A stretch of DNA of 64,000 nucleotides from Psammoneis japonica (lineage: Eukaryota), in assembly GCA_008632985.1 (NCBI GenBank), contig QPGO01000053.1:372001-436000 (forward strand), written 5' to 3'. This document shows positions 1 through 62,096 of the stretch, one piece after another (the stretch's first letter is position 1; each line of letters starts with the position of its first letter). The notes beneath the pieces were generated by a model. The model made no database searches. It was not told the origin of the DNA and saw only the letters and a list, made by a program, of their open reading frames with translations. A program made the translations under genes and the position numbers.

Positions 1-14
1 TGTTGCAGCATTGA

Positions 15-3289: not shown

Positions 3290-3359
3290 GACCCAGGCAT
3301 GTGTGTCATGAGGGTCATGTGAGCAACTTCACAAGGACTTGGGGACAAACAAGCTGAAG

Positions 3360-23072: not shown

Positions 23073-23768
23073 GTTGAATTACAACTATACTTTGTGTTGT
23101 TGACGTCTGTTTCGCAACAATGGTGCAACCAGCACAAACTCAACCGCAAGAGAACTTGAAGTAGCGTGATTTCGGCGGTTTCTTGTTTTTTGCGTTGCGT
23201 GTTGGCGGGAAAAATCGTCGCGCGCCATAATAATCGCGAGATCGCGCAAGTTCGAGGTTCGCAAGCCTGTGTCGTCGCTGTCGCCTTCATGCGGCACTTC
23301 ATAGACTAGCACTGCGTTTCACTTTTGCTCTAACCGCAACTGCAGGCATAAAAAAGAGCTTTCCGATATTTGCTCTATCTCTCGAGAATAGTCTGGAGCC
23401 ATGTCTTTTTCGAACAAGCGATCGCGAGTGTCTTGTTTCGACAACAACCTTCTGGCAGCTGTGAAGCTGGTCACCGAGACAGCAAATTTCTCGACAGCGA
23501 AGATCTCGGTCACTTCTTGCTGCTCACCTGGACCACCCACCTCCAAATGTTTTGCCAAAGTTGAAATGTAGGCCCCGCATGTAGATTGTGGATGCACGAA
23601 AAATCCACCGCCTGTCAACTCATTCAGCGGCAGCAGCTCTGCGCATTTTCCACCTGCACCTCACACGCACACACACTCACCTGCACAGTCCAATGACCAC
23701 ACTCTGCACACTGTGTGGCACATGCATGAGATCATCTGTTTGATGCAAATTGCATGTGGCACCACAGC

Positions 23769-24003
23769 AGTCACGACTCAATGTCATTCTGGTCGCATCT
23801 CACGACTGCAACCCAGACTCAGATTTTCTCTTCGAAACAATTGGCTCATCACAAAATCGATTCAAACAGAAGCAACGACATTCGTCATAATTTTCTAGAC
23901 AACGACTTTCAACAAGCGTCTGTTTACCTCTGTCGCTGTTCATGTTGCCACCAACCTCCGAGGTCTTGTCCATCCTGCTCAGCTGTGGGACTGCATCTCG
24001 ACT
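23769..24003 (+). repeat. LTR copy 1
   Basis: agtcacgact...catctcgact, 235 bp, near-identical to copies 2 and 3. Confidence 0.95.
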
Positions 24004-24071
24004 GGTTGTAGAGACCAATTTACGCGTTGACGAGAGCTCCTGACCGAGTCATCATCACGGTTGAGAGGGAG

Positions 24072-24306
24072 AGTCACGACTCAACGTCATTCTGGTCGCA
24101 TCTCACGACTGCAACCCAGACTCAGATTTTCTCTTCGAAATAATTAGCTCATCACAAAATCGATTCAAACAGAAGCAACGACATTCGTCATAATTTTCTA
24201 GACAACGACTTTCAACAAGCGTCTGTTTACCTCTGTCGCTGTTCACATTGCCACCAACCTCCGAGGTCTTGTCCATCCTACTCAGCTGCAGGACTGCACC
24301 TCAACT
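24072..24306 (+). repeat. LTR copy 2
   Basis: agtcacgact...cacctcaact, 235 bp. Confidence 0.95.
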
Positions 24307-24468
24307 GGTCACAGAGACCAATTCACGCGTTGACGAGAGCTCCTGACCGAGTCATCGTCACGGACGCTTTCGGTTTTTGATTTTGAAGCAAACCCGGGAA
24401 ATAGCTGAGTCTCTCTCGCTTCTCTCGTCTTCACTCTAACAAGAACCTCCCATGCTGCACTCTCTGTC

Positions 24469-27400
24469 ATGGCTGCCATCGATCCAGATGTTCTGGCAAA
24501 GGCGTTTGCCGATGCAATGGCCGCCAACGCCATGGCGGCCGCTCCTCCGGCTCCAACCAAGCCGTCACGTGGTGGAATTCACCCAACCCACGGGGTTTAC
24601 ATTGGTGGTTCCAAACTCAACAACAACTGCGAACAATCCAACGACAGAACCTACCGATTCGCCTCTCAGCGCCGTCATCCCAAGGCTCTCGACTCGACAG
24701 AACGATCTCTCCGCGATCAACAAGCTTCCGCAATGACTTCCAAGTTCAACGGTCGACTTGAGATTTCGGACGGTCCCATCAACGAGCTTGACAAGGACCA
24801 TTTCGTCAAGACTGTTCGAGATCTAGTAGAAGCCCACGGTCAGCAGACGTTCTACCATGTCAAGGACAGCGACGACAAGGTTCAACATGTCTTCGACCAT
24901 CTTCACGAGTTCACTGTGACCGATCTCGTGAACGAGTACACGGTTTGGGAAAGCAGCCACCGATGACGCCAAGTACGACGAGATCGAGCTCGACGACATC
25001 GGGCTCTCTCAACTTCTCGTTCACTCAAGAATCACTGACACCTTTCGCGAGAAAATCGAGACCAAGTTCAACCATCTTTTGGACTGCCAAGACTGCCCTG
25101 GATCTGTTCTGTTCATGATGGCTCTCGACACTTGCAATGCTGGCGCTCTAACGGACATTGAGACGGCTGAGAAGCAGCTAGAAGACCTTAGTTTGGTTGA
25201 CTATCCTGGCGAGGATTGCACGGACTTTGCTGCCGAAGCTCTTCGCATCGTGAAAATTGTGCAGACCGACTGCGCGCTTCCGGCGAACACAAGCTCCAAG
25301 CTGCTCCACAAGATCTCCTCTGCGTCCTCTGAATGCTTCAATCGCCGAGTCTACAACAAGCTCGACGACGTCAAGGCTATGGAACGCAAGTGCCGCCTCA
25401 AGAATCCTGCTGACATCGTGTCCGACAGCGATTGCAAAACGCTCGGACCGGTCGGTGTCATTGCGTGGATTCAAGAGCAACACAACGAACTCGTGAAGGA
25501 CGGGGAATGGCCTGCATTAGTCGCCAAGCTACCCGAGAGCAATCTTTCGACTGCGGACAACCCTGGGAAGACGAAGCACTGTTGTGGTTGTGGTCTCAAG
25601 GGGCACACCAAGAAGACGTGTCCGAAGTGCAACGCCAAACCGCCGCGCGACGATCCTCCTCCCAATCCGCCGCCTGCAGACAACCCTTCCAAGAAGAAGA
25701 GGCGACCCATCGCTGCCTGGCGCACTAAATTTGACGGAGAAACGAAGAAGGATAAGAATGGCAAGGAATGGAAGTGGTGTGCCACGTGCACGGCGAAGGG
25801 TGCCGACAAACCTGGAATCTGCCAGAAGCACTCTACCGCGGAACACACCGACGACCGCAGGCAACCTCCCAAGGAGACCCCAGCCAGGAATTTGTCTTCC
25901 GTTGCTGATCTGGACAGTGGCGTGCCCATGGGTCCGCCCGCTCAGACTGCCAAGGCACCAGAGGGAGACGAATCCGACCCCAACGAGTTGGTTTTCACGG
26001 GAATGTGGTGCGCAGCTACGGATCCCGTTGCCGACCCAGATTTCTGTTCCGCCCCTGTCACCACTGCAATTGTTGTTACTCCGGCTTCTTTGGCCGAGAG
26101 GGAGAGCGATGCAGTCATTAGCACTGAGGTGGTTTGCATCGAAACGAGCCCACCTGCACTCACCTCAGTCGTGGATCCAGTCGTGTCTCCCATCGTGGTT
26201 GAGACTGTCACTCCCGAAGACGCCGATGACTTCTACGAACACTCCGACGCTTTCTCTGCCTTTGAAAACGAACCACCGGCTATTGAGTTGTTTCCGGCCT
26301 CGAAGCTGCACTCTGTCAAGCATCCAGATGAGTTCTTTGACGCTCCCGCACATTTGACTGACATGCTGTCAGACGACACCAAGTTGGATCTCATCCTTGA
26401 ACACGACGTACACTTTGAAGACGCACACTACGACTTGCCTCCGTGTGTTACGCATCGTGGCTTCGATTTCTACGATCCAGAGGTCCTGGATGCGGATGAT
26501 TGTCACGAGGACGTCGAAGACGAGCCCACTTCGCGTCGCTCACTCTTGGGTCGAGTCAAGCCACTCACACTCTGGCTCGCCGCCATGTTTTGGGAAACGG
26601 CACTGCATCTTTGCTTTGCTCCGATCCCATGCATCCCTCGAGCTCTACGCCGCCAGCGCAAACTCCCAACTTTGCACGGGTTTCCAGCCTCCTGGATGGT
26701 CCCATCCGTTGCAGTGATGGCATGGTCAGCAGTTTACGCCGGTCAACAGCCCGAGCATCCATTCTCGAACGCACCAAGTCGTTTTTCGACCGCCAGCTCT
26801 CAAGTCTACCACATTGTGGAAGAGCTAGATGACCGGATAGTGTTGGACACGGGGTCACTGTTCGAACATCACAGGATCAAAGGCACGCAAGCACTCGCCG
26901 AGTTTGTCGCGCGCCATCCGTCACACGCACTGAGCACTCGTCTCAAGGCCTGCTGGGAGAGCCCAGAAGTAGCTGAACGGTCTGATGCGATGGACGAATC
27001 AGCCTTCTTTGATGCCTGTGAGGAACTGGAACCTCTCGACGACCAGAAGCAATTCTTTGACGCTCTTGAGGACTTCAGCCCGGATTTCTTCCGGTTTGAC
27101 GAGCTCTGTCTGCCGCATCATGTCGTGGACACCACCCATTTTCAAGATCCTGTGGAACCATTGGAGGAAGCAAGTGTCAGACCAGTCGTCTGCAATGCCT
27201 CCACCATCCAACTGCTCACCGGACAATCACAAGCCGACCTCCTTGCATCCGATCCGCAGGCACTCATCGGTCTGTCGGACGAGGCTCTCACGGTCGTCAT
27301 GGACACTGGTGCCACGTTAGCCATTGCCCCCGACAAAGCTGATTTTACGGGGCCTGTGACTGTTCCCAAGAAACCCTTACAGATCAATGGGATTGCCAAC

Positions 27401-30400
27401 GGTCTCACCATCCAGGGCACCGGTCCGGTTGCGTGGGTGTTCACAACGCCGAGTGGGGCTACCATCCAACTGAACACCATGGCATGCTACGTCCCTGGAG
27501 CCCGTCAGCGCCTGCCATCGCCTCAACGCCTCTTCAACGAAGAGAAGGGGGTACGTGGGAAGTGTGAGGGCGATGAAGCCACTTTCCATTTACACATTGA
27601 CGGGACAGGCAAGTTGGTCGTGCCACATCATCCATCAAGCCACTTGCCCATTGCGTCGATGACCAAGGGCGCATCTGCCGCTCCTCAAGTGAACCTTCAG
27701 ATCCTTGACGAGGAGAATCGAAACCTCACGGCAGGCCAAAAGCTTCTTCTCGAAATGCACGCCCGTTTTGGCCATTTGAACTTTGGTCGCGTCCAAGCAC
27801 TTCTCCGCGCAGTTCCGTTCCTTTCGAACCGTTTCAAGTCTGCAGCAAAGTGTGACCACCCAAGATGCGAGGCACGCGAATGTGCTAAAGGTCATGGACG
27901 CTCTCTTGGATCTACTCACAAGTCGACCGTCCCTGAACGCGACGGGGCCCTTCGAGCTGACCATCTTCGACCGGGTCAGGCTGTCAGCATTGATCATTTT
28001 GCGTCGCGCCTTTTGGGCCGCACCTTCGACTCTTGTGGCAAAGCCACGTCCAAGCAATTCAAGGGCGGTTGCATCTTTGTCGACCACGCCTCTGGCTATG
28101 TCCAGGTCGAGCACCAACTGGGTTTCTCCGCTGTTGAGACGACACGCGCGAAGCAAGCGTTTGAGAAACATGCTTTGGACCACGGGGTCATCGTCCAAGA
28201 ATTTCTTGCCGATGGTGGCGCTTTCAAGGCCAACGCTTTTGTACAACACATGCGAGAACATGAACAACGTCTCCGTTTTTGTGGAACCAACGCCCATCAT
28301 CAGAACGGCGTCGCAGAGCGGGGCATCCGCAGCATCTCCAACATGGCGAGAGCGATGTTGCTTCATGCATCAATCCACTGGAAGGGGGGAATTGACAGCT
28401 CCCTGTGGCCCATGGCAGTTTCTCATGCCACGCACATCTACAATGTCACCCCAAATTCCAAAGGACATTGCCCAGCGGACATTTTCACCGGTTCGACAGT
28501 GCCAAGACATCGGTTGCGCAACATTCACACATGGGGATGTCCAGCGTACGTACTTGACCCGACCCTCGCTTCCGGGAAGAAGCTCCCGCGTTGGGAGCCT
28601 CGCACTCGTTGCGCTTTGTTCGTGGGACTCAGTGCCATCCATTCCAGTGAGGTTCCTTTGGTCCTCAATCTTCAAACTGGAAGTGTTGCACCTCAGCATC
28701 ATGTGGTCTTTGACGATCTCTTCGCCACCGCACCATCAATCGAGAGGGAGACGGATCCACCTGATCACTGGGAACACTTGTGCCTCAACCAATCGACATG
28801 CATCCCTCTGGAGAAGGATCAGGCAGTTCATTTGCACGATGAGTGGCTTGCCCCTCCAGAGCGTCAACGTAAAGAACGAGAACCAGCCAGAGCAACACGC
28901 ATTCGCGGGCATTTTGAGCCTGCTCCATCGATTGCTGTGCCGGATTCACCCACTTCTCGCGACGACGTTGCCGATCGAGTCGCACCTGCGACTCAGCAGC
29001 CAACACCACCAGTCCCACCTGCGACTCAAACTCCTGCAGACTCTACGGACTCTACGCCAATTCAGCCACCTGAACCTCAAGACAGCAACGGACTTCCGCC
29101 ACCCGAAGCGCCGACGGAACCAACAGCTCCTCCCCCAGTCGAGACACCTCCCATGACGAATCCAGAGGGAGCACCAGGGCTGCGACGGTCTTCACGGTCA
29201 ACCAAGGGACAGCTCAACTCTGCCAAGTTTGTAGATGAGGTCTGCTTCAGCTCCGTCGAGGAAATGCCGCTGCCGATTGGACACGAGGCTCAACTGGCGC
29301 ATCTGGCGACTCTCGAGACGGATTTGGACAGTGGTGCCATCAATGTCGGCGATCCATGAGCCTGCGCAGCTAGTGAGAAAACCAAGGACCCTGACATGCC
29401 TTCGTCACACAATGCTCTGAAAGGTCCGGATGCCGACGAATGGATTGAGGCGATGAAAATTGAAGTCAACGCACTCATGCATCGTCCAGCCTGGAAAGCA
29501 GTCGAGCGTCAGCCGCGTGTGAATGCACTTCCAGGCACATGGGCACTGGAGCTCAAGAGACTCCCAGATGGAACCCCTCTCAAGTGTGAGGCCCGACACT
29601 GCGTCCGCGGTGATTTGCAGAAAGAAGGAGTCGACCACTTCGAAACCTGCGCGCCGGTTGTGCAGTGGTCCAGTGCCCGACTCATGCTCACTGCGGCATT
29701 AAAGGAGGGATGGACTGCACGACAGGTGGACTGCACCACAGCCTTTTGCCAAGCTGACATCGCCGAGGAAGTTTGCACAACACCGCCGAAGGGATTTGCG
29801 CCAAGGTCGGGACTCAACATGGTTCTCAAACTTTTGAAAGGACCACACGGCCTAAAACAGTCTCCCAAGGGCTTCTGCGAGAAGTTACGAGCTGGTTTAA
29901 CCGAGCGCGGATGGGTGCCTTCAGCCATAGATCCCTGTTTGTATTTCAAAGAGGGCATGATGTGTGTGGTGCACGTCAACGACACCGTTTTTGCTGGAGC
30001 TTCAGCTGAAGCTCTAGAAGCCGAAATTCGCAAGTTAGGAGTCTCCGACGACGAACATCGCCACGCATTTGAACTTAGAGACGAAGGAGAAGTCGGCAAC
30101 TTTCTCGGCATCAAGATCGAAAAGCTCTCCGAGGGTCGATTTCTGCTCACTCAACCCGGTCTAATTGACAAGGTCCTGCGCACCGCACAGATGCAGGATT
30201 GCAATGGAGCATCTGCTCCAGCTCTACCTGCGGCCATTGGTGCCGACACGGACGGCCTGCCTTTTGATGAACCCTGCGATTGTCGCTCAGTTGTTGGAAT
30301 GTTGATGCACTTGGCAGCGAACAGCCGGCCAGACATTGCACATGCCACACATCAAGTGGCTCGATTCTCGTTTGCGCCCCGAGCGTCCCACGCTGCTGCA

Positions 30401-31060
30401 GTGAAGCGGATGCTCCGACACCTCAAAGCAACTGCTGCTGAAGGTCTCATTCTCAAGCCTGCGCAAGATCATCGAGTTGATTGCCACGTCGATTCTGACT
30501 TCGTGGGGTCATTTGGTGTGGAAGATGGTCAAGACCCAGTTTCTGTCAAGTCCAGGACTGGACACCTCATCTGCTGCGCCGGCTGCCCGCTTGTCTGGGT
30601 GTCCAAGCTGCAGACTCTTGCAGCATTGTCAACTGTGGAAGCGGAATGTGTCGCACTTTCTCAAGCCATGCGCGATCTCATCCCTGTTCGTGAAGTTCTC
30701 AAGGAGCTCAACCACCACGTGTTTGGAAAGTCTGACCGCCAAAACCCCATCACGACTCACTCCAAGGCTTTTGAGCTCGCAACCCAAGGCACCGATGACT
30801 CGCCTGTAGAGCAGAATGTCCTGCCTGCGTCCATTGTGTGCGAAGATGACTCCGCGTGCCTCAAGTTCGCACGTGTGCCCAAGTTGTCTCCGCGAACCAA
30901 ACACATCGGCATCCCGCACCACTGGTTTGGGACTAAAGTCGAACAATTGGAGATCGACATCCAACCTGTCAGCACTCTAGAGCAACCAGCCGATCAGTTC
31001 ACGAAGGGACTGCGGACCGATGCGTTCCGTGCGGCTAGAAAGGCTCTTGTGGGCTGGTGA
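24469..31060 (+). pseudogene. Copia Gag-Pol polyprotein, inactivated
   Basis: Zn knuckle CCGCGLKGHTKKTC, protease VMDTGAT, integrase (HARFGH..VSIDH..IFVDHASG..HHQNGVAER), RT and RNase H. Frameshift near 24940, premature TGA at 29357 (CGA>TGA), catalytic YVDD read as HVND at 29972-29983. Confidence 0.93.
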
Positions 31061-31081
31061 GCTCTCTCGGTTGAGAGGGAG

Positions 31082-31316
31082 AGTCACGACTCAACGTCAT
31101 TCTGGTCGCATCTCACGACTGCAACCCAGACTCAGATTTTCTCTTCGAAACAATTAGCTCATCACAAAATCGATTCAAACAGAAGCAACGACATTCGTCA
31201 TAATTTTCTAGACAATGACTTTCAACAAGCGTCTGTTTGCCTCTGTCGCTGTTCACATTGCCACCAACCTCCGAGGTCTTGTCCATCCTGCTCAGCTGCA
31301 GGACTGCATCTCGACT
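31082..31316 (+). repeat. LTR copy 3 (3' LTR)
   Basis: agtcacgact...catctcgact, 235 bp, follows the PPT. Confidence 0.95.
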
Positions 31317-31745
31317 ACAGTGCATGCAACAGGTGTGCCCAACATGTTGTTTGTTGATCAAAAGATCTGCAAGGCAAACCACAGCCACTGCAGCAGTCAG
31401 GACAAGTGCAACGAGCAGCACAGGAAGCCTTGTTGGGTTCCCTTTGGGTGACTTTGACTTGCCAATTCAACACTTGCTCAAAAGAGCTGAGTGCAAGTTG
31501 AGCGCATGAAAAACCTTCCACACGTCACATCAGCGCAAGATCTTTTCCCCCCCTCCGCATCTTCTTTTCGGTTGCTCATCGTTCGCACGACTGTCATTGT
31601 TCGGACTTGCTCCAACAGCACATGCCACACCAGTGCGGCAGGGCTCCACTCAAACAAATGGAGACAGCTGAAAAATTGGCCTCAATCCAGACAAATTGCT
31701 TTGGTCACCAAGCACTTGTTGCTTGACAGTTGCTTGGTTTTTTTT

Positions 31746-31832
31746 AATTCTCTGAGCTGGAGCTTGCTTTGTCACTCTGAAATTCTCTGAGCTGGAGCTT
31801 GGTCACTCCAGAATTCTCTGAGCTGGAGCTTG
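31746..31832 (+). repeat. Short tandem repeat (aattctctgagctggagcttg x3), related to 39070-39140
   Basis: Three copies are visible. Similar agctggagcttggtcactc units recur in direct orientation at 39079-39135. Confidence 0.7.
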
Positions 31833-32100
31833 GGTGTCCTGTCACCACTGGTGGATTCTGACAAAAATCAAAGGAATCTTGCTTTTAACAAGATGCCCAA
31901 CTGCCCAACCCAAAAGGGGTCTGGGCAGATGTCATGGCTGACAAGTTGTGGCCAATGAAAAGGTGTTGTGGCCAGCTGTTGTTTTGTGCTCTTGTGTCTT
32001 GTGCAAACAGCACTTTGACAAAATGGTGTGAAGACAGTGGACACCCGGGTGTTGCAAGCCTCTGTTCCACTGCCTGGCACAGTTTTAAGAGTCAGCAGTC

Positions 32101-35100
32101 TCGCGTCTGGTGGGGCAACAATCTGAGATGCGCGCCAGCATGACAAAATTCCCACAACTGTGGAAAGTCAGATTTGTCTTATGTTCTTAATTGTGTGATG
32201 CAAGAGCTGCATGCCGGTGTGCAGAAAACTGACGTTGCACGTTAAACCAAGCTGCAATCTTGCACGCTCACATGCAAGTTGATTTGTGCAACACAATCTT
32301 GACACCTGCCACGTTGTTTTTACCACGTGGTTTGTCCCACTCATTTTCATGTCACTTGTTTTTACAAAATGAACAATGGTGCTTCCCTTTGCCATTGGCA
32401 ATGATTGTCCTGTGTGTGGCAAACGTTTTCTCCCAACTGGTCTTCAACACCACCTGAGAACTCATCTTCCCTGCAAACTGTCCTTTTCTCAAAGCCTTCT
32501 TCGAGCCGCATCTTCCCACCAATCTAACACCACTCATGGCAAACAGTCCCAAATGGGAGAATCGGATGAACATGTTGACACTGCTGCGTCTTCTACCCTT
32601 GGCACTCCTCCCATTGAATTTCTCGCCACAGGGTCTGACTCCAATGCTGGGCCAACTCCACAAGGTTGCACGCAACTCAATCCCCGGCCGCTGCAATCCA
32701 ATCATGCATTTTCATCTGCACCAGAGCTGTGTGGTCCCCACAACAACTCCATTTTTCCCCACGCCAATGATGTTTCAGAGTGCCAGTTTCCTGACCACAA
32801 AGAACTTGTTTCCGACACCGAGGTTTCTGCCACTGTGGCAGCTGAATCTGGCCCTTTTGCTGTTCTTGATCAAGTTGGACACCTCTCCGCGGATGAGGAC
32901 CTTGTGGCTCTCAAAGTTTACAACAGCAAAACCATGTCCATGGTCTGCATGTTGAATTGTGTTGTTCCAAGGGCACCCCAATCAGCATCACAGATGAATT
33001 GCTGAGAACTGTGTGGGAGGAATTCTCCAGTGGTGGGTTGTCTGTCACCTGACAAATGCACTCTTCTTGAACTTTCATGTCCAAGCTCAAGTTAATGTTG
33101 CCCAGCATTGTTGCTCCTGTTCTGCAGCGAGCCCCCCTTGAGTCCATTTCCATCATCAACCAATTCACACAACATCCAATGACACAGAGTTGCAGATGCA
33201 TTCCTTGGCAGCCCAGTTCTTGGATCGACCAAGCACCTGTACATCGGCGTTCATGTGATTTGGATGTGGAGTGTTTGTCTCACGGTGGTCCACAGTGTGG
33301 ACATTGAAACCAATTTTGACTGGTGCCTGACAACATGCTGCACATCTCTGCATTCCTGGGTGGAGACATTGGTGGTCTCATCACCAAAAACAATGCCAAC
33401 AACCAACACATTGTTGTTGACAGTGATGTTCTTGGCAGTGGGGATTTTGGCTGTTTCTGTTGAGTCATCACATGATCCAAAACTGTGGTTGTCCAACTCT
33501 GCTTGATCGGCAAAGAGGGGCTCATCACAACAGTCGTCTGCAATTGCTCCTTCTGGCAATTGTTGGATGGCATTAATGGCACCAGAAACAGGTGCTTCAC
33601 AGTCACTTGTGTTGTCTGGTGTTTTTTAACGGAAGTGGCAATGTCGCTGTCCTTGGACATTTGCAGGTCTTTGGTGGCTGAAGTGCCAAACAATGATGGG
33701 TGGATCGACTTTGACTGTCCGAATTGGTTTGAATGCAAGCAAAACTCTGCTGACATTTCCTTCTGTGATTCAATCAAAGTCCCTCCACATGGGAACCAAC
33801 AGAAGCACTGCCAATCACATCAGTGGACATGCTGTTTTCCCGGACCTTGGCATTGTGTTGGCACTTTCTTTTCCGGGCAAGACATTTTCTCCCAGCATCA
33901 GCCTCTCTTCGTCTGGCTGCATGTGCTGACAATTCCTCTGCCACCTCCCTCAATGCAGAGGACAGATGTTTGTCACTGCAAACCATTGAAAACAGTGACA
34001 AAGTGCTCTTGGCTGGATTGCCAAAGCTTGGCCAGCAGGAAGTGTGTTGAGAAATCCATCCGTGTTGAGAGCATGGAATGAATGATTGATGTGTGTGGGA
34101 GACAATCCAATGGAAGAGACCTTCTTGCATGTCAAAGTTCTCTTGCTCACACGCTGATCGGGTTGGAAATGCACACGTTGCTGAGAGATTTTGTTGTTTT
34201 TGTGATTGAGTCCCATCAAAATTGGAGGGAGATGAGATGCTGCATGAAAGGTGGAACACAACAATGACATGGAAGGTGATTGTGGATGTCACGGCAAGGT
34301 GAGGGCACAACCTGGCGATGCCACACAACACAGTTGTGAAGTTTCTGTGCTGCATTGTGACCACAGCTCTTTGGTGTGAGGAGCGTCACATGGGGCTGCA
34401 TGTCAAGTTAGTGCAATTGTCCACATGAATGAAAATTGAATTGCACAAAATGTCTTGCACACTTTGGTGACAGTGTGAAAAATTGCACCACAAATCTGTG
34501 CAATTGTGCAAAGCATCAAACCCATTTTGGCAACAGTGTGCGGATTTATGTCACAAATGTGGGAAGTCCAAACCACAGCATTTGCAATGAATGTCAAAAT
34601 TTTGCACTCTCTTTCAGTGATGTGAGACACACAAAAGACACAATTTTGAATGTCATCCATTGCACACAAAGGGCACACACAACACACGCCTTAATTGTTT
34701 CATTTGAGGATGCTGAAAATTTCCAAGAGAGAGAATGTACAGCCCATTGCCCCACTTGTGAAATTTCAAGATTTGGTGACTGTGCAGAGAACTGCCCACA
34801 CAGCTGCCAAACCCATCACAATTCCCCATCTGCACAGCAGCAAACAACATCAACAAATGCTCGGGGGCTGACATCGAAGATGTTGTGCTCAAATTGCAAA
34901 CAGTGCAGCATGCTGGGCAGCCTGGGATGCCTTGCATCAACAAAGGGCATCCTGGAATGCGTGTTTTTCTACATCAGCCGCTGGAGAATGATCTTGAAAA
35001 TGGACCCAGTTAACAAACTGTTGAGGCCACATGTGCTCAATGCTTTGCGAGAAGCAGTGGAGTGAGACGATGCATTGACAATGTGGAGACACAACTTGGG

Positions 35101-38073
35101 CTGTCCCAGACACACTTCAATGTGGCAATGCCAGGTCACAAGGCTGTTGCATCATTTGCAAAGAGACCACATTGAGGGAGAATTCCAGACATTCAGTTTG
35201 CATGAAAAACTGGATAAAAAACAGAGTGCACATGACGACTCTCGGGCACTCAATTTTTGTGTCACAGTGGGACATCATGTGGGCAGTGACAGGTTGCGCA
35301 GGTGCAGCTTGCAACCATTTTTGAAGGGGTGGGTGCAAAAAAACAAAATCCGTTGTGACACATGCATGGACAAAGTGACTTTGGCACTAGATTTGGTGGA
35401 CTTTGAAGTGGAGACACCAGTCAACATTTTGATGTGACAGCCTTGCGTGATCGTGGTGGCTCGCCAAAAAAGTGACATGGAATGCCAGTTCCCAAGAATC
35501 ATGTGTGCTCTGCCACCTGTCAGATAGGACAGCATGGTGGCTGTGAGAGAAGACACTGTGTTAGACGTGGTGCATCTCAACAAAGACGATGCCAGTGTGG
35601 ACATCCCCTGGCCTTTCGCAGAGGGACATTGCCCTCCACCAGTGAGTGGAGACTTGGTGTTGTGCCGGAAAGCGCTCCTGGAATTGAGGGTGTTCTGCAC
35701 AGGAGTGCATGCATCCAGAGAGGGTCACATCAGTGGATTGCACCAAATTGTGGAGTGCTTGCACGAATTGCACAAAACCTTGAGAGAAGAAGCGGGTGTC
35801 ATTGAGGAAGACAGAAGGGTGAGAGCAAGACTGGACGATGAGTGAGGGTGAAGAGATGAGCCCAATTTCCTAGAAAGTTTTAACTCAAACTGGACGACCA
35901 AAACATGAAAAATTTTAATGCACTGGCTGGTTGCAAATGATGTCAAACAATGCTCTGTTTGTTGCGGGCGACGAGCAGGGGACAGCCAAGAGCATGGGGA
36001 CCCAGACGGAAAAGCGAGATGTTGCAGGCCAGCTGAAAATGCAAAAAGAAGTGTTTGGACTGCAGCCCTTTCATCCATCAAAATTGTGACCCAAAAATGT
36101 GATTGGACGGCAATTTGAAAATTCTGGCATGCAGCAACTGGAAGCGGCATTGTTCTTAGCGCGGATCATGCTGTGTGCAGTGAACAGATGATGCAAGGCT
36201 GCAAATGACAACACCTGCCATTCAAAAGGAATGTAAAATCCATCAATTGAGGTCCAATGATGATTGAACAGAGAGAGCACATTTGAGAAGGGCAAACAGG
36301 CATGCTGGCAGGCATGCACTCCAGACTGGGTTTGGTCCAAGGGAAAATTTACGTTGACACAAACACGTGGGAATGGGTGGGCAAACATGTTGGTGCGAAA
36401 CAATTCATCAGGCACGTGCGTTGCGGCGATGACTCCTCTGATGCGCAAATGGGTTGGACTGCTGATGCTGATCATGTGTCCTTCATTGCAGTTGGCACCC
36501 ATGACACAGCAGAGACAGGATCCCAAAATGTGGAGATTGCGGGAATGTCAGTAGTCAGCTTGGAGGTGGCGAAGAGAAAGTTTGTGGACAGCCAGACAAC
36601 CAACTGTGCCACGATGGCTGTGCACCCCAAGACAAAGTTTGTGACACACAACAAGGTCAAGTTGGCTTTCGGGAGCCAAATGCAGAAAAAGGTTTGCAAA
36701 CACCTCAACATGGACGTGAGTGACTGTGCAGTTTGGTGGGAAGAGAACACAGAGAAGGCAAGGAAAAGACCAAACAGGAGAAGAAACAACAGGCAGGAGG
36801 TTTTTAGAAAGAAGATGGTTGGCAAGTGCAGCTCAGGCTGCATGTGGATGAGATGGAGCAGTGTTCTCACCCGTTGGTTCTTGCTCAGAGATGGCTGGAT
36901 GCGATGGAATGCCAAGTGTCAAAGACATCAAAAAGGGCAGGGCATTGCCTCAAACACACTTCTGGTTCTTGGAAAATTGCTGCTCCCTTGCGGCAGGAAC
37001 AGAGCACTTTGAAACAGTGGACAGCCAAGGTGTCGGCGATTGGCCAACAACAAGTGCAGAAGCTTTTGCCAGGCTGATGTGTGACAACCACTGCAACGCG
37101 GCCATGTTGGTGGCAGAGATCAAAGAGCAATTCGAAGAAAACAGAAGGGTGCAACAACCAACCCAGCCCATGGCCCCAAAGCACACTTTCATGGGGAAAG
37201 GTGCAAAGTGAAATCAAGGATGGAACCAGGATGGGATCAGCAAGTGCAACAAACTCTACAATGCGGTGGTGAAGGAGAGAACAGATTGTGGCTGAGTCGA
37301 TGCACAGTGTGTGCAGACAAAAAATGAGAGAGCGCACATGGCAAGAAAAAAAAGAAGAAAAAGAAGGGCAGCATGAGGGGATGGGCAGCTCCAAAAATTG
37401 ATTGGAGCGACAGTGAGGAGGAGGCCACAGGAAGGAATGACAAACAGGGGAGGAAAGAGGAAGAGACTCCAGAAGCAGCAGCAACCAACAACAGTGCTTT
37501 GCCACAAACAAGTTCTTGAGGAGGCAGAGCAAACAATGACCCACAGAAGCGAGCGAGGATGCAATGAACATGCTGGTGGCATGGCAGCAACATTCACCAG
37601 CACGCAGCAGAAAATGATGACAGCAGAAGCATTGACCACAAAATCAACTCAGTTCGGCAGCTGCAACATCATGGAATGTGAGCCGGGCATTGACCGGAAA
37701 GAAATGTTTCACATGGTGAAAAGTGTCCAAGTGTTGCACTGCAAAATGTCGGGAATGTTGTGTCCATGTGCTCACTGGATTTAAAGAATGGTTTGAAAGC
37801 AATGTGAATCGGGGGCTGGTCTGAAGGCAAATTGTCGCACGGTGAAAAGTGGATGAGTGTTGCACTTGAAAATGTTGGTGTGACGTTGTCCGTGTGGATG
37901 TTGTGTTTAAATTTTCTTGCCACACATGACAAGAAAAACTGCATTGGAAGTGGGATTTCTCACACGGCGTGCGAAAAATTTTGAATTAAATTTTAAAAAT
38001 TTCAGGCATGATGGGCAAGAATGTCACACGCAAGTTTGTGTGCGATGTCAGATCATTGCCCCACCAGACACGA
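32101..38073 (+). mobile_element. Degenerate ~6-kb TIR DNA transposon (Plavaka/CMC-like, tentative)
   Basis: Left TIR tcgcgtctggtggggcaacaatctga matches the reverse complement of the right end, tcgtgtctggtggggcaatgatctga. N-terminal C2H2 finger CPVCGKRF..LQHHLRTH. A second ORF remnant has WWEE..RRNN, TTSAEAFARL..KHT and GWNQDGISKCNKL, resembling accessory ORFs of such elements. Confidence 0.6.
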
Positions 38074-39421
38074 AGGTCCAGAGCTCAACTCTTCACCACA
38101 CCACCCATCTCCCAGTGCCTCTTGGGCAGGCATCCTCTGCTCCTGGCCATGACATCATCAACAAAATGAATCAAAGCAATCAAACCATTTGGGTGTGCCT
38201 GCACAGCAGCTGAACTCTGCTCTCTGGTTGTTCATCCACACAAGGAGTGCCACAATGCCGCACATGGCATTTCTTTCTGAGGTGGATCTGGCACTGATTC
38301 CATGTGATGCCATGTAAAATGCCACATTTTGCACATGAAGAAGGTGTGCCGGCAATTGATTTGTGATTCCTGGCTGCAAAATGTCATTTCTCATGCACTC
38401 AGGAGCCTTCCAATGCTGCTGCCTGTTGCTTTTCCCTTGTGCCAACCACAAGCCCCCATGCCCTGTGGTGTTTGATGCTTTGCTGTCAATGGCAAAACAG
38501 CTGGGAATCATTGGAAAAATGGTGGTGCCACCTTGGATGCAAGTGCCACATTCATGCCACATTTGGGACAAATGTGGCATTTGTGTGGATGGCCACCTTG
38601 TGGGGCCTGCATGCAAGTTCCCACCTCAAGCAGAGTGAGCAAGCAAGGTGCCTGTCAGACCTTGAAGCACAAGCACCAACTGCACTTGAGGAGTGCTGAT
38701 CGCACTGTCCAGAAGGGGGCAGAGATGTTGTGAAGCAATGCAAAATGGTCTTGTGATGGCCTTCCCAGCAGATTGTCTTTTGTGAAGACAGCAGACATGC
38801 CAGCTGTGCCAGGCAGTGGAGCAGAAGTGTGCCAGCTTTGCCTGGCAGTGGAGCAGATGTGTGACACCCAGATGTCCACTGTCTTTGCAAGTGGAACTTT
38901 GCTGTGTGCTTTTAATCTGACTGAGTGGGTTTGCTCAGCTTCGCTTCAGAGCAAATCGCAGTGCAGGTGACCAAAGTGCACCAGTGTGAGCTTCTCCACA
39001 ACACAACACTGTCAATTTTTCTTTTTTCTTGAAGTTGAAATGGCAGTGCAGCCACCTCTACAACTTGCAGAATTTCCAAGCTGGAGCTTGGTCACTCTTT
39101 GAAAATCTCCGAGCTGGGGCTTAGTCTCTCTGAAAATCTGGACAAAAAACTCAAACCCAGTTTTAAGTGCCGCTGCACCTTTGCCTGGCAACACCGGCAC
39201 CAGCCAACCCACACTTCCAGCACACCCTGCAGCTGCTAGAATTGTCTCTGGCTGCAGCTACTAGAATTGTCTCTGAAAATCTGGACAATTATCACAGGGT
39301 ACCGTGATGATTTAGGGATAAAGAATTGTTGCCAAGAACAACACACATTTCTACAAAACTACTTTCTCTCAATCTCTAGAAAGTCTACGTGTAGTAGATA
39401 GCGAGATCAGCTTAATCGCAA

Positions 39422-41251
39422 TCATGCAATTTTCGTCATACGAATGTTGTAGAGTCTCATTTTGCGCAGAGCTTCGACGTTGCTGCATTCCAAGAGTGTT
39501 AAACCAATTGTTCGTCGGCCCCTTTTCAATTTCATATCTCCCAGTTCGTGAGTTTCCTCCCCTGTTTCAAATACTTTCGTAAGGTTCAACTTCTTTCCAA
39601 CATAAAGCCGGACTCTCGTACCCGGAGGCACCTTGTACGCATGGAGGGAGATCCTGTATGTTGCGGTACGAAGCACGTGTACCTTCAATTCCTGGACAGC
39701 GCCAATCTCTAAAAAATTGGTGTTGTCCCACCCTGCTCTGTTTTCGCCTCGCATACGGAAGGTATATTCCATTTCAATGTATGGTCGATTTACACCTGGG
39801 AGACCAATCAACTGAACCGGGGTCTTCCATGCATGTGGGTCGGAGCGGACTTTTTTCAATGCTTTGTTATATTTTCTTTCCATTTCTTGAAATTTCCCAG
39901 GCATGGTTCCGAGGAGGTTGAGTTTTTGAAGAGGATCTTTAGCGAGATCGAATAGATAGAATTTTCCTTTGTCGTTCACAATCACCCAATCTCCATCGAC
40001 AAAGGCAGAGCTGCGTTTATTCATTGGCCAAGATTTCTTCGTAAATCGGTACTGCCAGCCGTCGTCCGCCAAAAAAGATTCAAGCGGACCAGGAGTAATC
40101 GTCAGGAAACTGCGTTCGGCACGCCACTTAGCATTGTCTCTTACAAAGAACCGACGTAGGTTCCTGCCATCCAACGAGGGTACATCTGACTTGCGGGTAT
40201 GGTCTGCAAGACGGAGAATGGTAGGATAAATATCCATCACTACCGTCACTTCGCTTACTTGTTTGGGTATGAATTTGGAAGGGCAGTAAATGCCTAAGCG
40301 GTTTCTCAACCCACCTTCAAAACAAGTTCCTTTGTTTCTGAGGAATCCTGTTGGGTTACGTGCAGCCACCTCTTTGTCGTTCATCACATATGTTTCCCCT
40401 GTTGTCTTAAAAAATCCATCCTGATTTTGCTTGAGAGTATCTGTCTTGAATTCCTGGCCATTATCTCCTAGAAAGAAAACAATAGTATTGTCCGCAAGCT
40501 CATTGTCTTTCAGCGCCGTAAGGATTCGACCAACTTGGGTATCGAGTTGTTCCATCATGCCGAGAAACATCGCATAGTGTTCGCCGATGCCCATTTTCAT
40601 ATATTTTTTCTGCAGGGCTTCAGGGCAAAGCCATGGTTGATGCGGTTGAGAATAAGGAAGATAGAGGAAGAAGGGATCATCCTTGTGTGTTTCGATGAAA
40701 TCGATCCCTTTGTCAGTAACACGCTCAACTTGCCAACCATCTTCAATCCCTGTGTATTTTCCATTGCGAGCAAATGGCGATTTGAAGTGCTCGTAGCGTC
40801 CAAAGCCACGGTTGTCTTCGCTCCAAAGCTCCCATGTTTCATTGAAACCACGGCGATGGGGCAATTCGGCGTCTGAACTACCAAGATTCCACTTTCCCAC
40901 CATTCCTGTCACATAACCTGCATCCTGAAGGGCTTGGCCTAGCAAATATTCGTCGGGGTGAGGCGCTTCGGCTCCATATCCTACCGCGGCTGTTCCTGTG
41001 CGCATGAAGTTCCTGCCGGTCAAGAGGGACGACCGGGTGGGGGTGCATGAGGAATGCGTGTAAAAACGGGTGAACTGTACGCCTTCTGTCATCAACCTAT
41101 CCAGGTTTGGAGTTTGTAATGGTGGCTGGCGGAAGCCGTAATCATCGAAACCTTGATCATCGGTCATGATCAAAATGAAATTTGGTTTCTGTTTCTGCCC
41201 ATGGGTTGTGACGACAGCCACCAAGAAGAAACATGTTATGGTGATGATCAT
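39422..41251 (-). CDS. Arylsulfatase (formylglycine-dependent S1 sulfatase), secreted
   Basis: 609-aa intact intronless ORF. KPNFILIMTDDQG, CTPTRSSLLTGR (CxPxR), GKWNLG, GDNG and KGTCFEGGLR motifs. Signal peptide. Confidence 0.95.
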   Translation of the reverse strand: MIITITCFFLVAVVTTHGQKQKPNFILIMTDDQGFDDYGFRQPPLQTPNLDRLMTEGVQFTRFYTHSSCTPTRSSLLTGRNFMRTGTAAVGYGAEAPHPDEYLLGQALQDAGYVTGMVGKWNLGSSDAELPHRRGFNETWELWSEDNRGFGRYEHFKSPFARNGKYTGIEDGWQVERVTDKGIDFIETHKDDPFFLYLPYSQPHQPWLCPEALQKKYMKMGIGEHYAMFLGMMEQLDTQVGRILTALKDNELADNTIVFFLGDNGQEFKTDTLKQNQDGFFKTTGETYVMNDKEVAARNPTGFLRNKGTCFEGGLRNRLGIYCPSKFIPKQVSEVTVVMDIYPTILRLADHTRKSDVPSLDGRNLRRFFVRDNAKWRAERSFLTITPGPLESFLADDGWQYRFTKKSWPMNKRSSAFVDGDWVIVNDKGKFYLFDLAKDPLQKLNLLGTMPGKFQEMERKYNKALKKVRSDPHAWKTPVQLIGLPGVNRPYIEMEYTFRMRGENRAGWDNTNFLEIGAVQELKVHVLRTATYRISLHAYKVPPGTRVRLYVGKKLNLTKVFETGEETHELGDMKLKRGRRTIGLTLLECSNVEALRKMRLYNIRMTKIA

Positions 41252-41398
41252 TGCTCACTACAGGATGAAACTTGGTCCCTTTTTTTCGCTAACATTCAGC
41301 ACAACAAAGGTTTTTTTTCTGTTGCTTCAAAGACCTGTGACATTGTTTCTCCAAGCAACAACATTATTTTTTGCAAAAATGACCAGAAATGACTCCAA

Positions 41399-44300
41399 TG
41401 TCCCTGAACGGTCTTGACACATACGGTACATACAGTGCCGGTGCTGTAAGTTGTCCACGTACCGCACCGGTGCGCACGAACACGAAAAATTGACTGCAGC
41501 CACAGTGTTCGGGTTTTTCTGTAACAGAATTTCTAACTTCGAGGTGTCAGCAATCCCGGTCATTCGAATCTCCCGAATCTTGCAGCCGCTGACGCAGTTA
41601 TGACGTAGAAGTTTACTTCACTCTTCCCTTCCGCGATGATTCATGCAAATGCTTTGATTCGCAATCCATCTGTCATGCCGAAGTCAATGTGGCAAAATGT
41701 GCCGAGTGTCAATCCTTTCAAATGCATGAGGCGCTCTTTGCATTGCAACAGCACTCTCATTCACATGAACTTGTGCAACAAGAAAAGGGCCAAAAAATCT
41801 GGCTTCCAATTTGTTGGCAGGATCGTCTGTCTTGATCAAAATTTGCTGCCCGACACGACAATCGAAAAAGCGTCTTTTGAGATTTTGCTGGTGCAAGTTG
41901 TCATCAGTCAACCCTTGTTGATGACTCCGAGTGGTGACCAAATCTCCAATGAGAGGCAAATCAAGAAACACGTCTCTCTGGCAGATGAGAGCTCCTGGCG
42001 AAATTCTTAAAACTCTCGAGGTGGCGCATCGCAGACTGTGCACAGTTGCAGCCAATGCATCATCAACAATCTGTTGAGCTTGTGCACATTGTGAGAAGGA
42101 TGTCCTCTGATTGCAGCTTCAATGACGTTGCCAGCAGACTGATGCATTCTCTCACAAATGGCGCTGGCTTGAGGATTTCTGGTGGGGGTGGTTTCCACAC
42201 CCTCAATTGCTGCTGTCGCCAATGGAATCTGAAATGGTTTGCCAACAAATTCACCACCCTTGTTGTCAATGCAGCAGTCCAGCCTTGGACATCTGGCCAA
42301 CCAACAATTGGCAAACTTCATCTGCGCATGATCTGAAGTCTTGTTGTTGACGCGAACCAGTTCAACGAGGTCAGAAACAGGGTCAATCGCAGTCAACATG
42401 TCAAACTCAACTTCCTGCTCTTGCACTCACATTTTCCAAGGACCAGTTGAATCAACAGCAACTTCATCCCAAGGAACCAAAGGAGCTTCTCTTGGTGGCA
42501 AATGGCTCCATCGAACTCCCCAAAGCTTGTTCCTTTGGCGCACATTGCAGCGACAATTTTCAGCCAATCGTCGCAGCACCAGATGATGACAATGTGTGCA
42601 AATCAAACAACAAAGCTTCTGTGTGCCACAATGCCCTGAGACTTGACAATGTCGCCTGACAACAGGAGCCAACAAGGCTGTTGGCAAAGTGATTTTCCAG
42701 CCATTCTCCTGTGTGCATTGAAATTCCACTGCCGCTCTTGACTCAGCTCTTGATCTTCAAACTGAAACCTTTGCACTGCATCTCTTCTGGACTCAGACAG
42801 TGCAAAAGGCAATTCACCAATTCTTGATCTTGAACAGTGCAAAACAAGGTGCTCAATTCAGGGCCCAAATTTTCTTTGAGCGACTCATCTTCTGGAGCCA
42901 TGGCAGTTGGAGGAACCAAAAAATCAACAATGGCGCCTTTCAACTCCACTCTAGAACTCTTCCCTTTCACAGTTTTCTCAACATGAGAAAATCATGAAAA
43001 GAAGTCAGCCAGAATGTTCTCCTTGCCTTCAAGACATCTGAACTTGGGTCCAAATTCTTCAAGAAAAAGGCGCCAACAAAGTGCTTGTTGCACACTCAGC
43101 ATCTTGAAGGTGAAGTGCTTGTCGTGATCCATGTGGGCTGTTGTGTCAGCTCCCAACAACACAGATTGAAACTCTTTAAAACAAAGAACTGCAACAAACA
43201 TTTCTTTTTCCACAGTGGAGCAATTCTTCTGAGCCACACTGAGTTTTGGGGGCCAACATGCAACCAGCTTGCCGCTCTGAGTGATGACTGTGCCAAGCTG
43301 ACAATCGCTCGCATCTGTGCAAATCTGAAAAGGAAGGTTGTGATCAGGGCAAGCAAGTGAAATGTCATCCACAACAATGTGAGTTCTTTCACAGGCATGG
43401 ACTTGCCCAACCACTTGACTGTCCTTGATGAGAAATTTACATGGATTCCTGCCTTGGTCAAAAAATCTGTGATCCAAGAATCACGTTGCATTGACACAGC
43501 ATTTGAAACACCAGCGCTTTTTGAAAATCAACACTTCTTGACATGTCAAATTCAGGCAGTGCAATTGTCGAGTCAGGACCAAACTTCTTCTTGTTCCCAC
43601 CAGAATCCATGTCCTTGGCCTTGCACTTCTTGAGCTCATCTTCAGGCTTGCCAAAGCTCTTCTGATCAGCAAATCCTTTTTCATTGGACACATGCTGGTC
43701 CATGTCTTCCAAGGAATTGGTGCCAACATCTTTTCCCATGTGCACACAATTCTGCTTCCATGTCATTGGCACTCCTGTGAACACACCATTTTTGGTCTGT
43801 TGCTCATTGAGCAAAGGCTCAGTGTCTGGCAACTTGTCAGCACAACGTGACATCTGAGTCATCCTGCCAGCATGCTCATGAGGAGAATCACCAAGAGGTC
43901 CAGAAAAGTTTTCAAAAATTCAAACATTGTGTCACATGCTTGACAATTGCAGTGTCACTGACAAAAGCATGCAACCTCAATGTCAAACCTGGCCATTGTC
44001 CAAACAGTTTCTGTGACACCCGAAACCAGATTGCTCCACATGTCTTGAGAATTGTCTTCCAATGCTTCTTCAAAATGAGCAAACTTTTCAGGTCCTTCAT
44101 CACAATCCAGATGCTCGGCACAGTTCTTAAAGCATTCTGCAGTGTGGAGCAAGCACTTGATGCCGCACTTGCCAGTGAACTGAGGGCACATTTTCTGCTT
44201 CTTGGTGCCATCATCACAGTTTTGTGCGAGCTTCCCTTTGTCCAAATCTCCGTGTTTGAAGGTTGGTTTGCTGCACACAAAGCATGGTGCTCTCAACGAG

Positions 44301-44580
44301 GCTCTCACCAAATGCAACATTGACCTTGCGTTTGAAGCAAAGAGTGCCACAGCAAAGAAAAGAGAAGGAAAGAACAAGACACAGTGTGATCACATTGAAT
44401 GGTCTTGACAAGTTGTCCATGAATGCACTCTAAAAATTGCAAGGAAAAGCTGTGATTGACTGCAGCCACAGTGCTTGGGTTTCTGTCACAGAGTTTTTTT
44501 GAGGTGTCAACAATCCTGGTCATTCAAATCTCCCAAATCTTGCAGCCGCCCACACAGCTGTGATGCAGAAGTTTGCTTCA
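41399..44580 (-). mobile_element. Ty3/Gypsy LTR retrotransposon 1, internally deleted
   Basis: LTR-like copies at about 41399-41620 and 44395-44580. PPT at 41621-41633. Integrase (PWDEVAVD..NPQASAICERMH) and RNase H ([21 protein letters not shown]) remnants. RT is missing. Confidence 0.85.
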
Positions 44581-47460: not shown

Positions 47461-47774
47461 GTCTGTTTCTAAGTGGACAGACTTGTGTGGATGTCAACCC
47501 AAATTTCCATCAAACAGCTTTGAAAACTTGGGGACAGCACTTGTTTTGGCTCCACTTGTTGAGCCCTTGAAAGATGTTTTTGCTCTCTGATGACCTTTCC
47601 AGGTGACACTGGCTCACACTTGGCATCCAGAATTTGAGCAGTGCACACGTGGGAACAACACAATGGGCAAGCATCACATTGCCCAAATCTTCTTCTTCTG
47701 TCTTGGCACCTGCAAAAGCAAAGCAAGCACTCTCTCTGTCATCCCAAAAGACCTGTTTTTGCCGGTGATCATTG

Positions 47775-49461: not shown

Positions 49462-49969
49462 GTGGTGTTTGTTCACTTTGTCAGAGCCAGTGCACCATGA
49501 CATTCAGATGCCTGGAACGGGCATTGTCAATGGCACAATGGCATCATTGCAATTGATTGATTTTTGTGGCAAGCACCATGGTGGTCCCATGGTTGCCCGT
49601 GCAATTGCTGAGTTCTTTGCACACACACACACATTCATGCACATGAACCAAATGCTCTTGTGGGCCAGAGCAGTGATCCGTTAAGATGTGTCATTTGGGT
49701 GCGGTGTGTTTGATCACAGGAATGTGCCATGTCAGCCAAGCGTGCACACATTCGAGCAGCAGCACAATGACAAATGTCGTTGGATGCATTGCACCACTGA
49801 GAGACAGATGTCTGGATGCATTGATTGTTGGTTTTGCATCAAACAGTGCAAACAATGATGCCAAATGGTGACCTGGCACACTCATGGGTTCGCCAGCGGT
49901 GTTTGCCAAAGCAAATTGTGCACCACACCCACATTTTCCCTCACAAAACTGTTTGTTTGCGCACCAAAA

Positions 49970-62050: not shown

Positions 62051-62096
62051 CTGGGTCAAACAGCCGATGTTGTTCCATGTGTTGCGTTGGGGCCCT

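Follow-up and report, generated by a model that had tools for sequence, protein, structure and literature searches.

How can the reading frame of a retrotransposon lose nearly all of its tyrosines and still remain open? The question is raised by a 64,000-nt stretch of the genome of Psammoneis japonica (GenBank assembly GCA_008632985.1, contig QPGO01000053.1, positions 372,001 to 436,000 of the forward strand; hereafter the window, in whose own coordinates all features are given), in which nucleotides 29341-31080 are the reverse transcriptase (RT)-RNase H part of a dead Ty1/Copia long terminal repeat (LTR) retrotransposon (23769-31316) of a diatom genome. An original prediction, made from the sequence alone, held that TpA had been lost from this frame before CpG, by a process both faster than and separate from the deamination of 5-methylcytosine (5mC), and that an active inactivation mechanism was at work. 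We find that TA was lost before CpG in this genome, a reading drawn from a handful of elements in one window. The best explanation overall, and in our judgement a fairly probable one, is a TpA-specific mutational footprint of the kind described in the chlorarachniophyte alga Bigelowiella natans. An active mechanism is plausible and has outside support in the available part of the B. natans preprint, where hypermutation is confined to TpA and runs at about 1000 times the background (10.64898/2026.01.13.699255, 2026); the part of the prediction that fares badly is the knock-out of this particular copy in place.

Loss of tyrosine codons and of TpA in the Copia frame

The RT-RNase H frame (29360..31060, + strand) comprises 566 codons (29360-31057; the 554 amino acids first given for it were too few) and is open to a TGA at 31058-31060. 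It carries a Pfam RVT_2 match (E 2.2e-29, 103 bits, profile positions 3-243 of 244); 321 homologues were retrieved, and RVT_2 is present in all 120 among the matches listed. Just one of the 566 residues is Tyr, as predicted, and it occupies a column with Phe in the homologues. In comparison with 52 aligned homologues (43-60% identity), the Tyr content is 0.18% against a mean of 3.35% and a minimum of 2.69%, and the probability of at most one Tyr at the homologue frequency is 8.7e-8. All 15 columns with a consensus Tyr (at least 60% Tyr) hold another residue, namely His in seven, Cys in six, and Trp and Ile in one each, and both His (3.9% vs 2.2%) and Cys (3.5% vs 1.7%) are more frequent than in the homologues; other consensus residues are retained in 56-100% of columns. 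The predicted motifs HVND, PHGLKQ, RHLK, DCHVDSDF, TGH, EAECVALS and QPAD were all found. The catalytic one, HVND in place of YVDD (29972..29983, + strand), combines a Y>H change that fits TAC>CAC with a D>N change that fits C|GAC>C|AAC. No relative with a comparable loss was seen, the lowest Tyr content being 2.26% among the 120 homologues listed and 1.86% among 80 metagenome loci.

The replacements also have a direction. In the RT frame 70 of 344 conserved columns are replaced; a single TG/CA>TA step restores 30 of the 70, a single TG/CA>CG step restores 3, and the 37 that fit neither are expected at 57% identity. First-position A>G replacements are preceded by T in 11 of 15 cases, compared with a third-position T frequency of 131/566 (23%; p 5e-5), and pol as a whole contains 62 TA where about 242 would be expected at the TA density of 23 relatives. 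Under the genetic code A>G and T>C never convert a sense codon into a stop, and for this reason the frame is open despite heavy mutation.

A functional element that avoids TA through ordinary drift or codon-usage selection might be thought to look similar. Two distant Copia relatives from metagenome loci (L060 and L075) have observed/expected (o/e) ratios of 0.18-0.19 for TA and 0.11 for CG in the RT segment, with Tyr at most consensus columns, so that low TA alone can be compositional and can coexist with an apparently intact protein in another organism; with low TA and yet Tyr kept, they were rejected as examples of the same phenomenon. Here, by contrast, YVDD has become HVND, every consensus Tyr is gone, the 30 conserved columns are altered exactly as TA loss predicts, and an in-frame stop and a frameshift are present. 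The lost catalytic and invariant residues refute drift or codon bias for this copy, and as a general account of the pattern we find it scarcely credible.

The order of TA and CpG loss can be read from the same frame. A recount of 29341-31080 gives the 16 TA of the original prediction (o/e 0.18), with CpG still common (112 CG, o/e 0.85) and TG (147, o/e 1.45) and CA (146, o/e 1.28) in excess. Consensus-Tyr (TAY) codons are kept in 0 of 15 cases and Arg codons inferred to be CGN, including the one that became a stop, in 13 of 14 (Fisher p 2e-7); conserved Arg is retained in 17 of 18 columns, and 13 of these are still CGN, which means that their CpGs are intact. Among the 64 1-kb bins of the window, 9 have a TA o/e below 0.3 with a CG o/e of at least 0.6 (7 in the Copia element, the other 2 at 1001-2000 and 41001-42000), as against none with a TA o/e of at least 0.3 and a CG o/e below 0.6. 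Among 80 relatives from other organisms, many have low CG with normal TA, and none has TA below 0.3 with CG above 0.6. The codons, the replaced columns (30 vs 3) and the bins (9 vs 0) all bear out the claim that the TpA process is faster than CpG loss, and the claim that it is separate from 5mC deamination holds on chemical grounds, the altered base being A or T and not C.

Strand symmetry, sequence context and confinement

Both strands are affected. Seven of the lost Tyr became His through a coding-strand T>C and six became Cys through A>G, and TG/(TG+CA) lies between 0.41 and 0.57 across all 32 2-kb bins and between 0.41 and 0.48 inside the element. The sequence context is graded, T-A-T being the hottest and Y-TA-R (Y, pyrimidine; R, purine) the coldest: TAT/ATA number 0-3 per 2 kb in depleted DNA compared with 25-77 in gene bins, and Y-TA-R makes up 11 of the 16 TA surviving in the RT frame (hand count) and 75 of 114 in the old blocks described below, as against 117 of 695 in the gene region. 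An additive per-strand model in which the hazard depends on the base 3' of the A accounts for 10 of 10 context classes, the hazards in old DNA being 3.0 for T, 1.9 for C, 1.0 for G and 0.2 for A; in Copia pol, measured against the 23 relatives, T is again highest (2.15). A simpler 'TAY' rule fits the split of Tyr>His and Tyr>Cys by preceding base (6/7 and 5/6, p 0.03), but it was dropped, as the non-Tyr events divide into 10 Y and 7 R (hand count) and recent events are without such bias.

Across the window the dinucleotide composition is bimodal. Where genes lie, at about 5-23 kb, 39-41.6 kb and 53.4-55.5 kb, the o/e ratio is roughly 0.5-0.85 for TA and roughly 0.75-1.4 for CG (0.46-0.75 and 0.72-1.36 in gene 2-kb bins). 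The genes there include V-ATPase B, an NRT2-like transporter, a sulfatase and a FAST/RAP protein, and V-ATPase B, at 94-95% identity to protein clusters with named members from Trieres, Nitzschia, Entomoneis, Chaetoceros, Thalassiosira and Cyclotella, identifies the host as a diatom. Most of the remaining window has TA o/e 0.01-0.1, CG o/e 0.12-0.55 and TG/CA o/e 1.6-2.0. The Copia element is intermediate, with TA o/e 0.12-0.30 and yet CG o/e 0.81-1.16, and it is nested in older DNA that the dinucleotide bins mark as poor in both TA and CG (31317..39100, no strand assigned); comparable blocks, delimited in the same way, lie at 1-4600, 41700-53200 and 56000-64000. The prediction that older elements lack both dinucleotides agrees with the 2-kb bins at 1-4000, 32001-38000, 42001-52000 and 58001-64000 (TA o/e 0.03-0.10, CG o/e 0.16-0.55); bin 56001-58000 has TA o/e 0.06 and CG o/e 0.57. 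The edges of TA depletion are only 200-400 bp wide, with TA per 200 nt going from 0-1 to 7-13 at 4400-4800, 39000-39200, 41600-41800 and 53000-53400. In this one 64-kb window, depletion is confined to foreign or silenced-type DNA (gene bins o/e 0.46-0.85, repeat bins 0.01-0.3).

That TA loss is found only where CpG decay is also present (Spearman 0.81, 64 bins) would be expected if it were a side effect of 5mC repair, in which long-patch, error-prone synthesis is drawn in by T:G mismatches and copies T wrongly in WA (W, A or T), so that TA becomes TG and the CpG is restored. Polymerase eta has a WA>WG error signature, familiar from the somatic-hypermutation literature, and the scheme would account for TA falling while CpG is intact. 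However, AA is not depleted (o/e 1.18 in the window, 1.16 in the RT region) although it lies within the WA motif, and the near-total loss of TAT/ATA would require a great number of repair events at each site with CpG o/e remaining close to 1. In the hypermutable regions of B. natans, moreover, the changes are nearly all A>G/T>C (1 of 231 otherwise), and CpG is never mentioned in the available part of that text (10.64898/2026.01.13.699255). We regard this explanation as quite improbable.

Dinucleotide specificity and domain restriction are also what one would expect of a DNA-modifying enzyme, and if T or A were modified at the TpA sites of silent chromatin (e.g. as 5-hydroxymethyluracil or N6-methyladenine), mispairing could give T>C or A>G without a deaminase. 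Hydroxymethyluracil prefers TpA in dinoflagellates. On the other side, we know of no base modification at TpA in diatoms, and the near-saturation seen here implies a rate that is high for simple mispairing; we would put the chance of this mechanism as very small. A TpA-directed process of the B. natans kind remains the reading that we prefer.

Family copies, timing and the structure of the element

When did the TA sites disappear relative to the insertion of this copy? The states of the family were read only through contigs of run X1, whose library type is not on record. Of these, 3063 map to 23500-31600 at a likeness of at least 80%, and 805 are at least 99% alike. The summed family depth of 2500-6800, where the left flank has 129 and single records have about 30-67, points to a family with dozens of copy equivalents; the window itself holds a single copy, and a protein search for shorter fragments returned no family member (best identity 62%). 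Runs X2 and X3 yielded 1 and 0 matching contigs, and no conclusion was drawn from them. The differences considered are 40 of 514 variable places, apparently ranked by the share of family depth that differs from the window, which is at least 88% at all of them (lowest share 0.878). At 17 of the 40 listed places a CG of the family is CA/TG in the window; one of these places is the D>N of HVND, which is private to this copy (G at 29978 in 97% of family contig depth). The other listed places are three TG<>CA doubles (six rows), two window TA losses, eight other transitions, four transversions, and three sites retained in the window only (one TA, two CG).

The LTRs provide a second measure. The 5' LTR (24072..24363, + strand; 6 TA, o/e 0.30; 18 CG, o/e 1.16) is 97.2% identical over 252 nt to the 3' LTR (31065..31316, + strand; 3 TA, o/e 0.18, and 12 CG, o/e 1.05, in 31082-31316). 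Six differences between them were classified as three TA-type, two CG-type and one other, while BLAST counts seven over the 252 nt. The resulting loss of 3 of 12 TA sites is far below the loss of 15 of 15 Tyr codons (p 5e-5).

A number of these observations weigh against a B. natans-type process as the source of the footprint. The 40 best-supported differences listed from the run X1 contigs do not include any of the 13 Tyr>His/Cys sites, and the private losses among those 40 amount to 2 TA and 17 CG, with 69 TA and 476 CG remaining in 24364-31064. The LTRs were already TA-poor on becoming a pair (TA o/e 0.18-0.30, CG o/e 1.05-1.16), and their loss since then, 3/12 TA vs 2/26 CG sites, is not a significant difference (p 0.30). 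The seven recent TA-type differences, read by hand, show no preference for T 3' of the A. Shared descent and parallel mutation cannot be separated, as no other copy is readable in full, and all of the old blocks could be retroelement-derived, leaving a possible link to reverse transcription. Finally, identity of mechanism with B. natans is something that we infer; the process there strikes DNA viruses, of which one is single copy, in a different branch of the supergroup.

The TA-poor state of the LTRs at insertion and the absence of the Tyr sites from the listed private changes suggest that most TA loss probably did not come from action in place on this copy. Most of it probably predates insertion, or came at insertion, or converged in all copies, and what followed was mainly CpG loss. 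The His and Cys states are probably common to part of the family. The original prediction had named active relatives sharing these residues as a finding that would count against it; part of the family probably does share them, nothing shows those copies to be active, and relatives in other organisms keep Tyr.

Such timing is also what editing during retrotransposition would produce. A host adenosine deaminase would act on element RNA or single-stranded cDNA, much as APOBEC3 does, and copies would arrive hypermutated and then decay slowly through loss of CpG and leftover TA. LTRs that were TA-poor with CG intact when the pair formed, and listed private differences that are mostly CpG losses and include no Tyr losses, are in line with this, as are a TA o/e that is 0.23-0.30 at 24-27 kb and drops to 0.12-0.21 at 27-31 kb, the retention of 2 of 6 consensus-Tyr columns in the protease-integrase part (the rest being C, H, F and F) vs 0 of 12 in RT-RNase H in the same alignment, and the fact that the identifiable old blocks are retroelement remnants. 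Editing of genomic RNA or minus-strand cDNA alone, however, would be one-sided, and we find 7 His vs 6 Cys and a TG share of 0.41-0.48; three TA-type LTR differences post-date integration; and the B. natans signature arises de novo in resident DNA-virus insertions, according to the available part of the preprint (10.64898/2026.01.13.699255). We consider editing at this stage unlikely, if worth keeping in mind, and continue to favor a TpA-specific footprint like that of B. natans.

The run X1 contigs also bear on whether the pattern could be an assembly artefact, in which long-read basecalling errors at modified heterochromatic bases write TA and CG as TG/CA. The pattern is limited to DNA that is likely methylated. 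Contigs of run X1, however, contain 49% of the element's sampled words, besides the 805 that are at least 99% alike, and 0 of 13 Tyr sites appear among the best-supported differences listed. This argument is a weak one, given that the library is not on record and that the source sample may itself be X1. At modified bases, errors in the consensus do not usually extend to almost 100% of sites, and an artefact appears to us highly improbable.

The element has the Ty1/Copia organization, with integrase upstream of RT-RNase H in one polyprotein and flanking direct LTRs, of which the 3' copy is truncated, ending at 31316 where similarity to the 5' LTR stops. The gag-protease-integrase part (24932..29356, + strand; 1475 codons, 12 Tyr) shares the frame of the RT-RNase H part and aligns along its length with the pol frames of the 23 relatives; it contains a D-T-G protease motif at 27303-27311, read from the sequence, and a weak SH3_retrovirus match (residues 1195-1262, E 1e-4, below the curated cut-off). 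The sole in-frame stop, TGA at 29357..29359 (+ strand), replaces an Arg that homologues have in 'DPR' (window 'GDP*ACAAS', homologue consensus 'DPRxYAAK') and would fit CGA>TGA, i.e. a CpG loss. An open frame with the likely gag start (24409..24966, + strand; ATG at 24470) overlaps the long pol frame in a different frame, which implies a frameshift near 24944; about a quarter of the family contig depth from run X1 is without one base at 24944, and the shift may reflect a 1-nt insertion in this copy rather than programmed frameshifting. The HVND motif, the loss of all consensus Tyr in RT, the TGA and the frame change are not those of an autonomous, active copy.

At the start of the 3' LTR repeat lies a purine run, GAGAGGGAGAG, that resembles a polypurine tract (31073..31083, + strand), and the same run is found between two copies of the LTR at the 5' end. 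The extra copy (23769..24060, + strand; TA o/e 0.25, CG o/e 1.07) stands in tandem ahead of the 5' LTR, is 95% identical to it, and departs from both other LTRs at two TG<>CA double sites. These head-to-tail copies (23769-24363) have between them the CGGTTGAGAGGGAGAG stretch that is also found ahead of the 3' LTR, and they look like what is left of a second element, in the order LTR-polypurine tract-LTR, or like a product of recombination.

The older blocks hold further repeats. Ty3/Gypsy-type remnants at 42995-47493 (- strand; TA o/e 0.01-0.07, CG o/e 0.16-0.37) include an RT_RNaseH match (E 1.5e-14) and a weak RVT_1 match, and stretches 41600-42699 and 44791-45872 are 69% alike. A 1.7-kb duplicate (47761-49461 and 62285-63984, 94% identity) lies in fully TA-depleted DNA; its copies differ at 16 TG<>CA doubles, at 15 sites of CG type and 3 of TA type, and by 21 further transitions and 17 transversions, the doubles marking sites that were TA or CG, not assignable between the two, when the copies separated and that were later struck on opposite strands. 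Because TAA and TAG are nearly gone, the blocks are rich in long frames on both strands (76 stop-to-stop frames of at least 130 codons outside 6-31.3 kb), which gene finders could take for genes; almost none of the 73 such frames that were scanned has a Pfam match. In TA-depleted DNA just past the truncated 3' LTR, a frame at 32373-33002 (+ strand) has a weak C2H2 zinc-finger match; a zinc-finger domain is among those enriched in TpA-poor coding sequences of B. natans in the available part of the preprint (10.64898/2026.01.13.699255). Inside the open FAST_1/RAP gene (54957-56666), a 111-nt unit repeated 11.3 times (55522-56769, - strand) has 0-2 TA per unit with normal CG, and the unique part of the gene has normal TA; the unit could be low in TA by its composition alone, or the TA process could have reached a repeat inside a host gene.

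A proposed mechanism and known systems

The target dinucleotide, the direction of change, the strand symmetry, the precedence over CpG and the restriction to repeats are observed in the DNA itself, and on this basis we can offer a proposal for how the footprint arose. A:T>G:C changes would be made specifically at TpA, yielding TG or CA, with both strands struck alike, T-A-T first and Y-TA-R last. The process would keep to non-genic DNA of transposon origin, within edges 200-400 bp wide, and would run well ahead of methylated-CpG decay in the same DNA, turning TAY (Tyr) codons into CAY (His) or TGY (Cys) while the frame stays open. By analogy, it would be of one kind with the hypermutation restricted to TpA in B. 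natans lines, and its agent may be an ADAT2/TadA-type deaminase that acts on adenine in DNA and is guided to silenced foreign sequence; the B. natans authors also put forward, as a hypothesis, an ADAT2-like DNA adenine deaminase (10.64898/2026.01.13.699255).

A broader version of this proposal is more tentative, and we entertain it without quite favoring it. A TpA-directed DNA-editing defence, in its simplest form a nuclear adenine deaminase guided to silenced invaders, could be common to diatoms and chlorarachniophytes and old within SAR (stramenopiles, alveolates and rhizarians). Early bursts on newly silenced retrotransposons would destroy Tyr codons without creating stops, before methyl-CpG decay sets in; with time, much of the genome's intergenic DNA would be made TG/CA-rich and pass beyond homology search, and the T-A-T preference would be the signature of the enzyme. 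Such a process would account for much diatom intergenic DNA being unrecognisable, and transposon dating would have to exclude TA and CG sites from divergence clocks. The signature, in which TA is lost, CpG is kept, open frames are free of Tyr and T-A-T is lost first, can be scanned for in any genome. Since diatoms are transformable and can be grown as mutation-accumulation lines, the mechanism is directly testable.

Known mutational genome defences, those of fungi (RIP, for repeat-induced point mutation) and vertebrates (APOBEC), are both cytosine-directed. RIP likewise relies on dinucleotide-specific transitions that permanently disable repeated or foreign DNA within sharp limits. However, it changes C to T, mainly CpA>TpA, and so enriches TpA, whereas here another base is changed, TpA is destroyed (o/e 0.01-0.3) and CpA/TpG are made (1.4-2.0). 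APOBEC3 also leaves hypermutated, dead-on-arrival retroelement copies with a dinucleotide context, but its deamination of C in minus-strand cDNA leads to G>A with a strand bias, unlike the A:T>G:C changes without strand bias seen here, in which A and T are altered. Hyper-editing by ADAR shares the A>G change and the favored U/T 5' of the edited A. Its substrate is RNA, so that heritable change needs reverse transcription and would be one-sided, and its 3' preference, G best and U worst, runs counter to the preference for T in this DNA. Decay of methylated CpG takes place in the same DNA with the same products (TpG/CpA) and accounts for the in-frame stop, the D>N of HVND and the 17 CG-to-CA/TG differences among the 40 listed, but it cannot alter TA and it lags TA loss in the window.

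Our literature searches turned up no account of TpA being lost, whether in transposons or in diatoms. The available part of Iyer et al. 2011 (PMC3239186) lists stramenopile deaminases and no such signature, and that of Veluchamy et al. 2015 (PMC4504042) is without bearing here. The nearest report, and so far the only one of an adenine-at-TpA editing defence, is the single preprint on B. natans (10.64898/2026.01.13.699255, 2026). As given in its available part, 231 of 302 new mutations in mutation-accumulation lines fell in two integrated viral regions, and 230 of the 231 were A>G/T>C, all on TpA, on either strand, at about 6e-7 per site per generation, some 1000 times the background, in 11 of 15 lines; TpA-poor coding sequences there are enriched for reverse transcriptase and DDE domains. 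The words 'CpG', 'flanking', 'trinucleotide' and 'diatom' do not occur in that part of the text, and two descriptors are new here, the loss of TA before CpG and the loss of T-A-T first.

The likeness between the two systems extends to A>G/T>C at TpA only, with TpG/CpA produced on either strand, foreign or silenced DNA struck and host genes spared, and to a long-term footprint of TpA depletion with CpA/TpG excess. In the diatom window the same characters are found as 30 vs 3 restored columns, the T preceding 11 of 15 first-position changes, the involvement of both strands and the confinement to repeats. The two differ in that the B. natans host is a chlorarachniophyte, hence a rhizarian, and the present one a diatom, a stramenopile; that the targets there are viral inserts and here an LTR retrotransposon family and large decayed-repeat blocks; and that B. 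natans offers a measured mutation rate and the window a footprint, which is far deeper here (TA o/e 0.01-0.1 over most of the 64 kb, as against a Rho of 0.45 for the nucleocytoplasmic large DNA virus insert in the available text). A diatom footprint of this depth, and on retrotransposons, would widen the range of such a defence across a major eukaryotic group.

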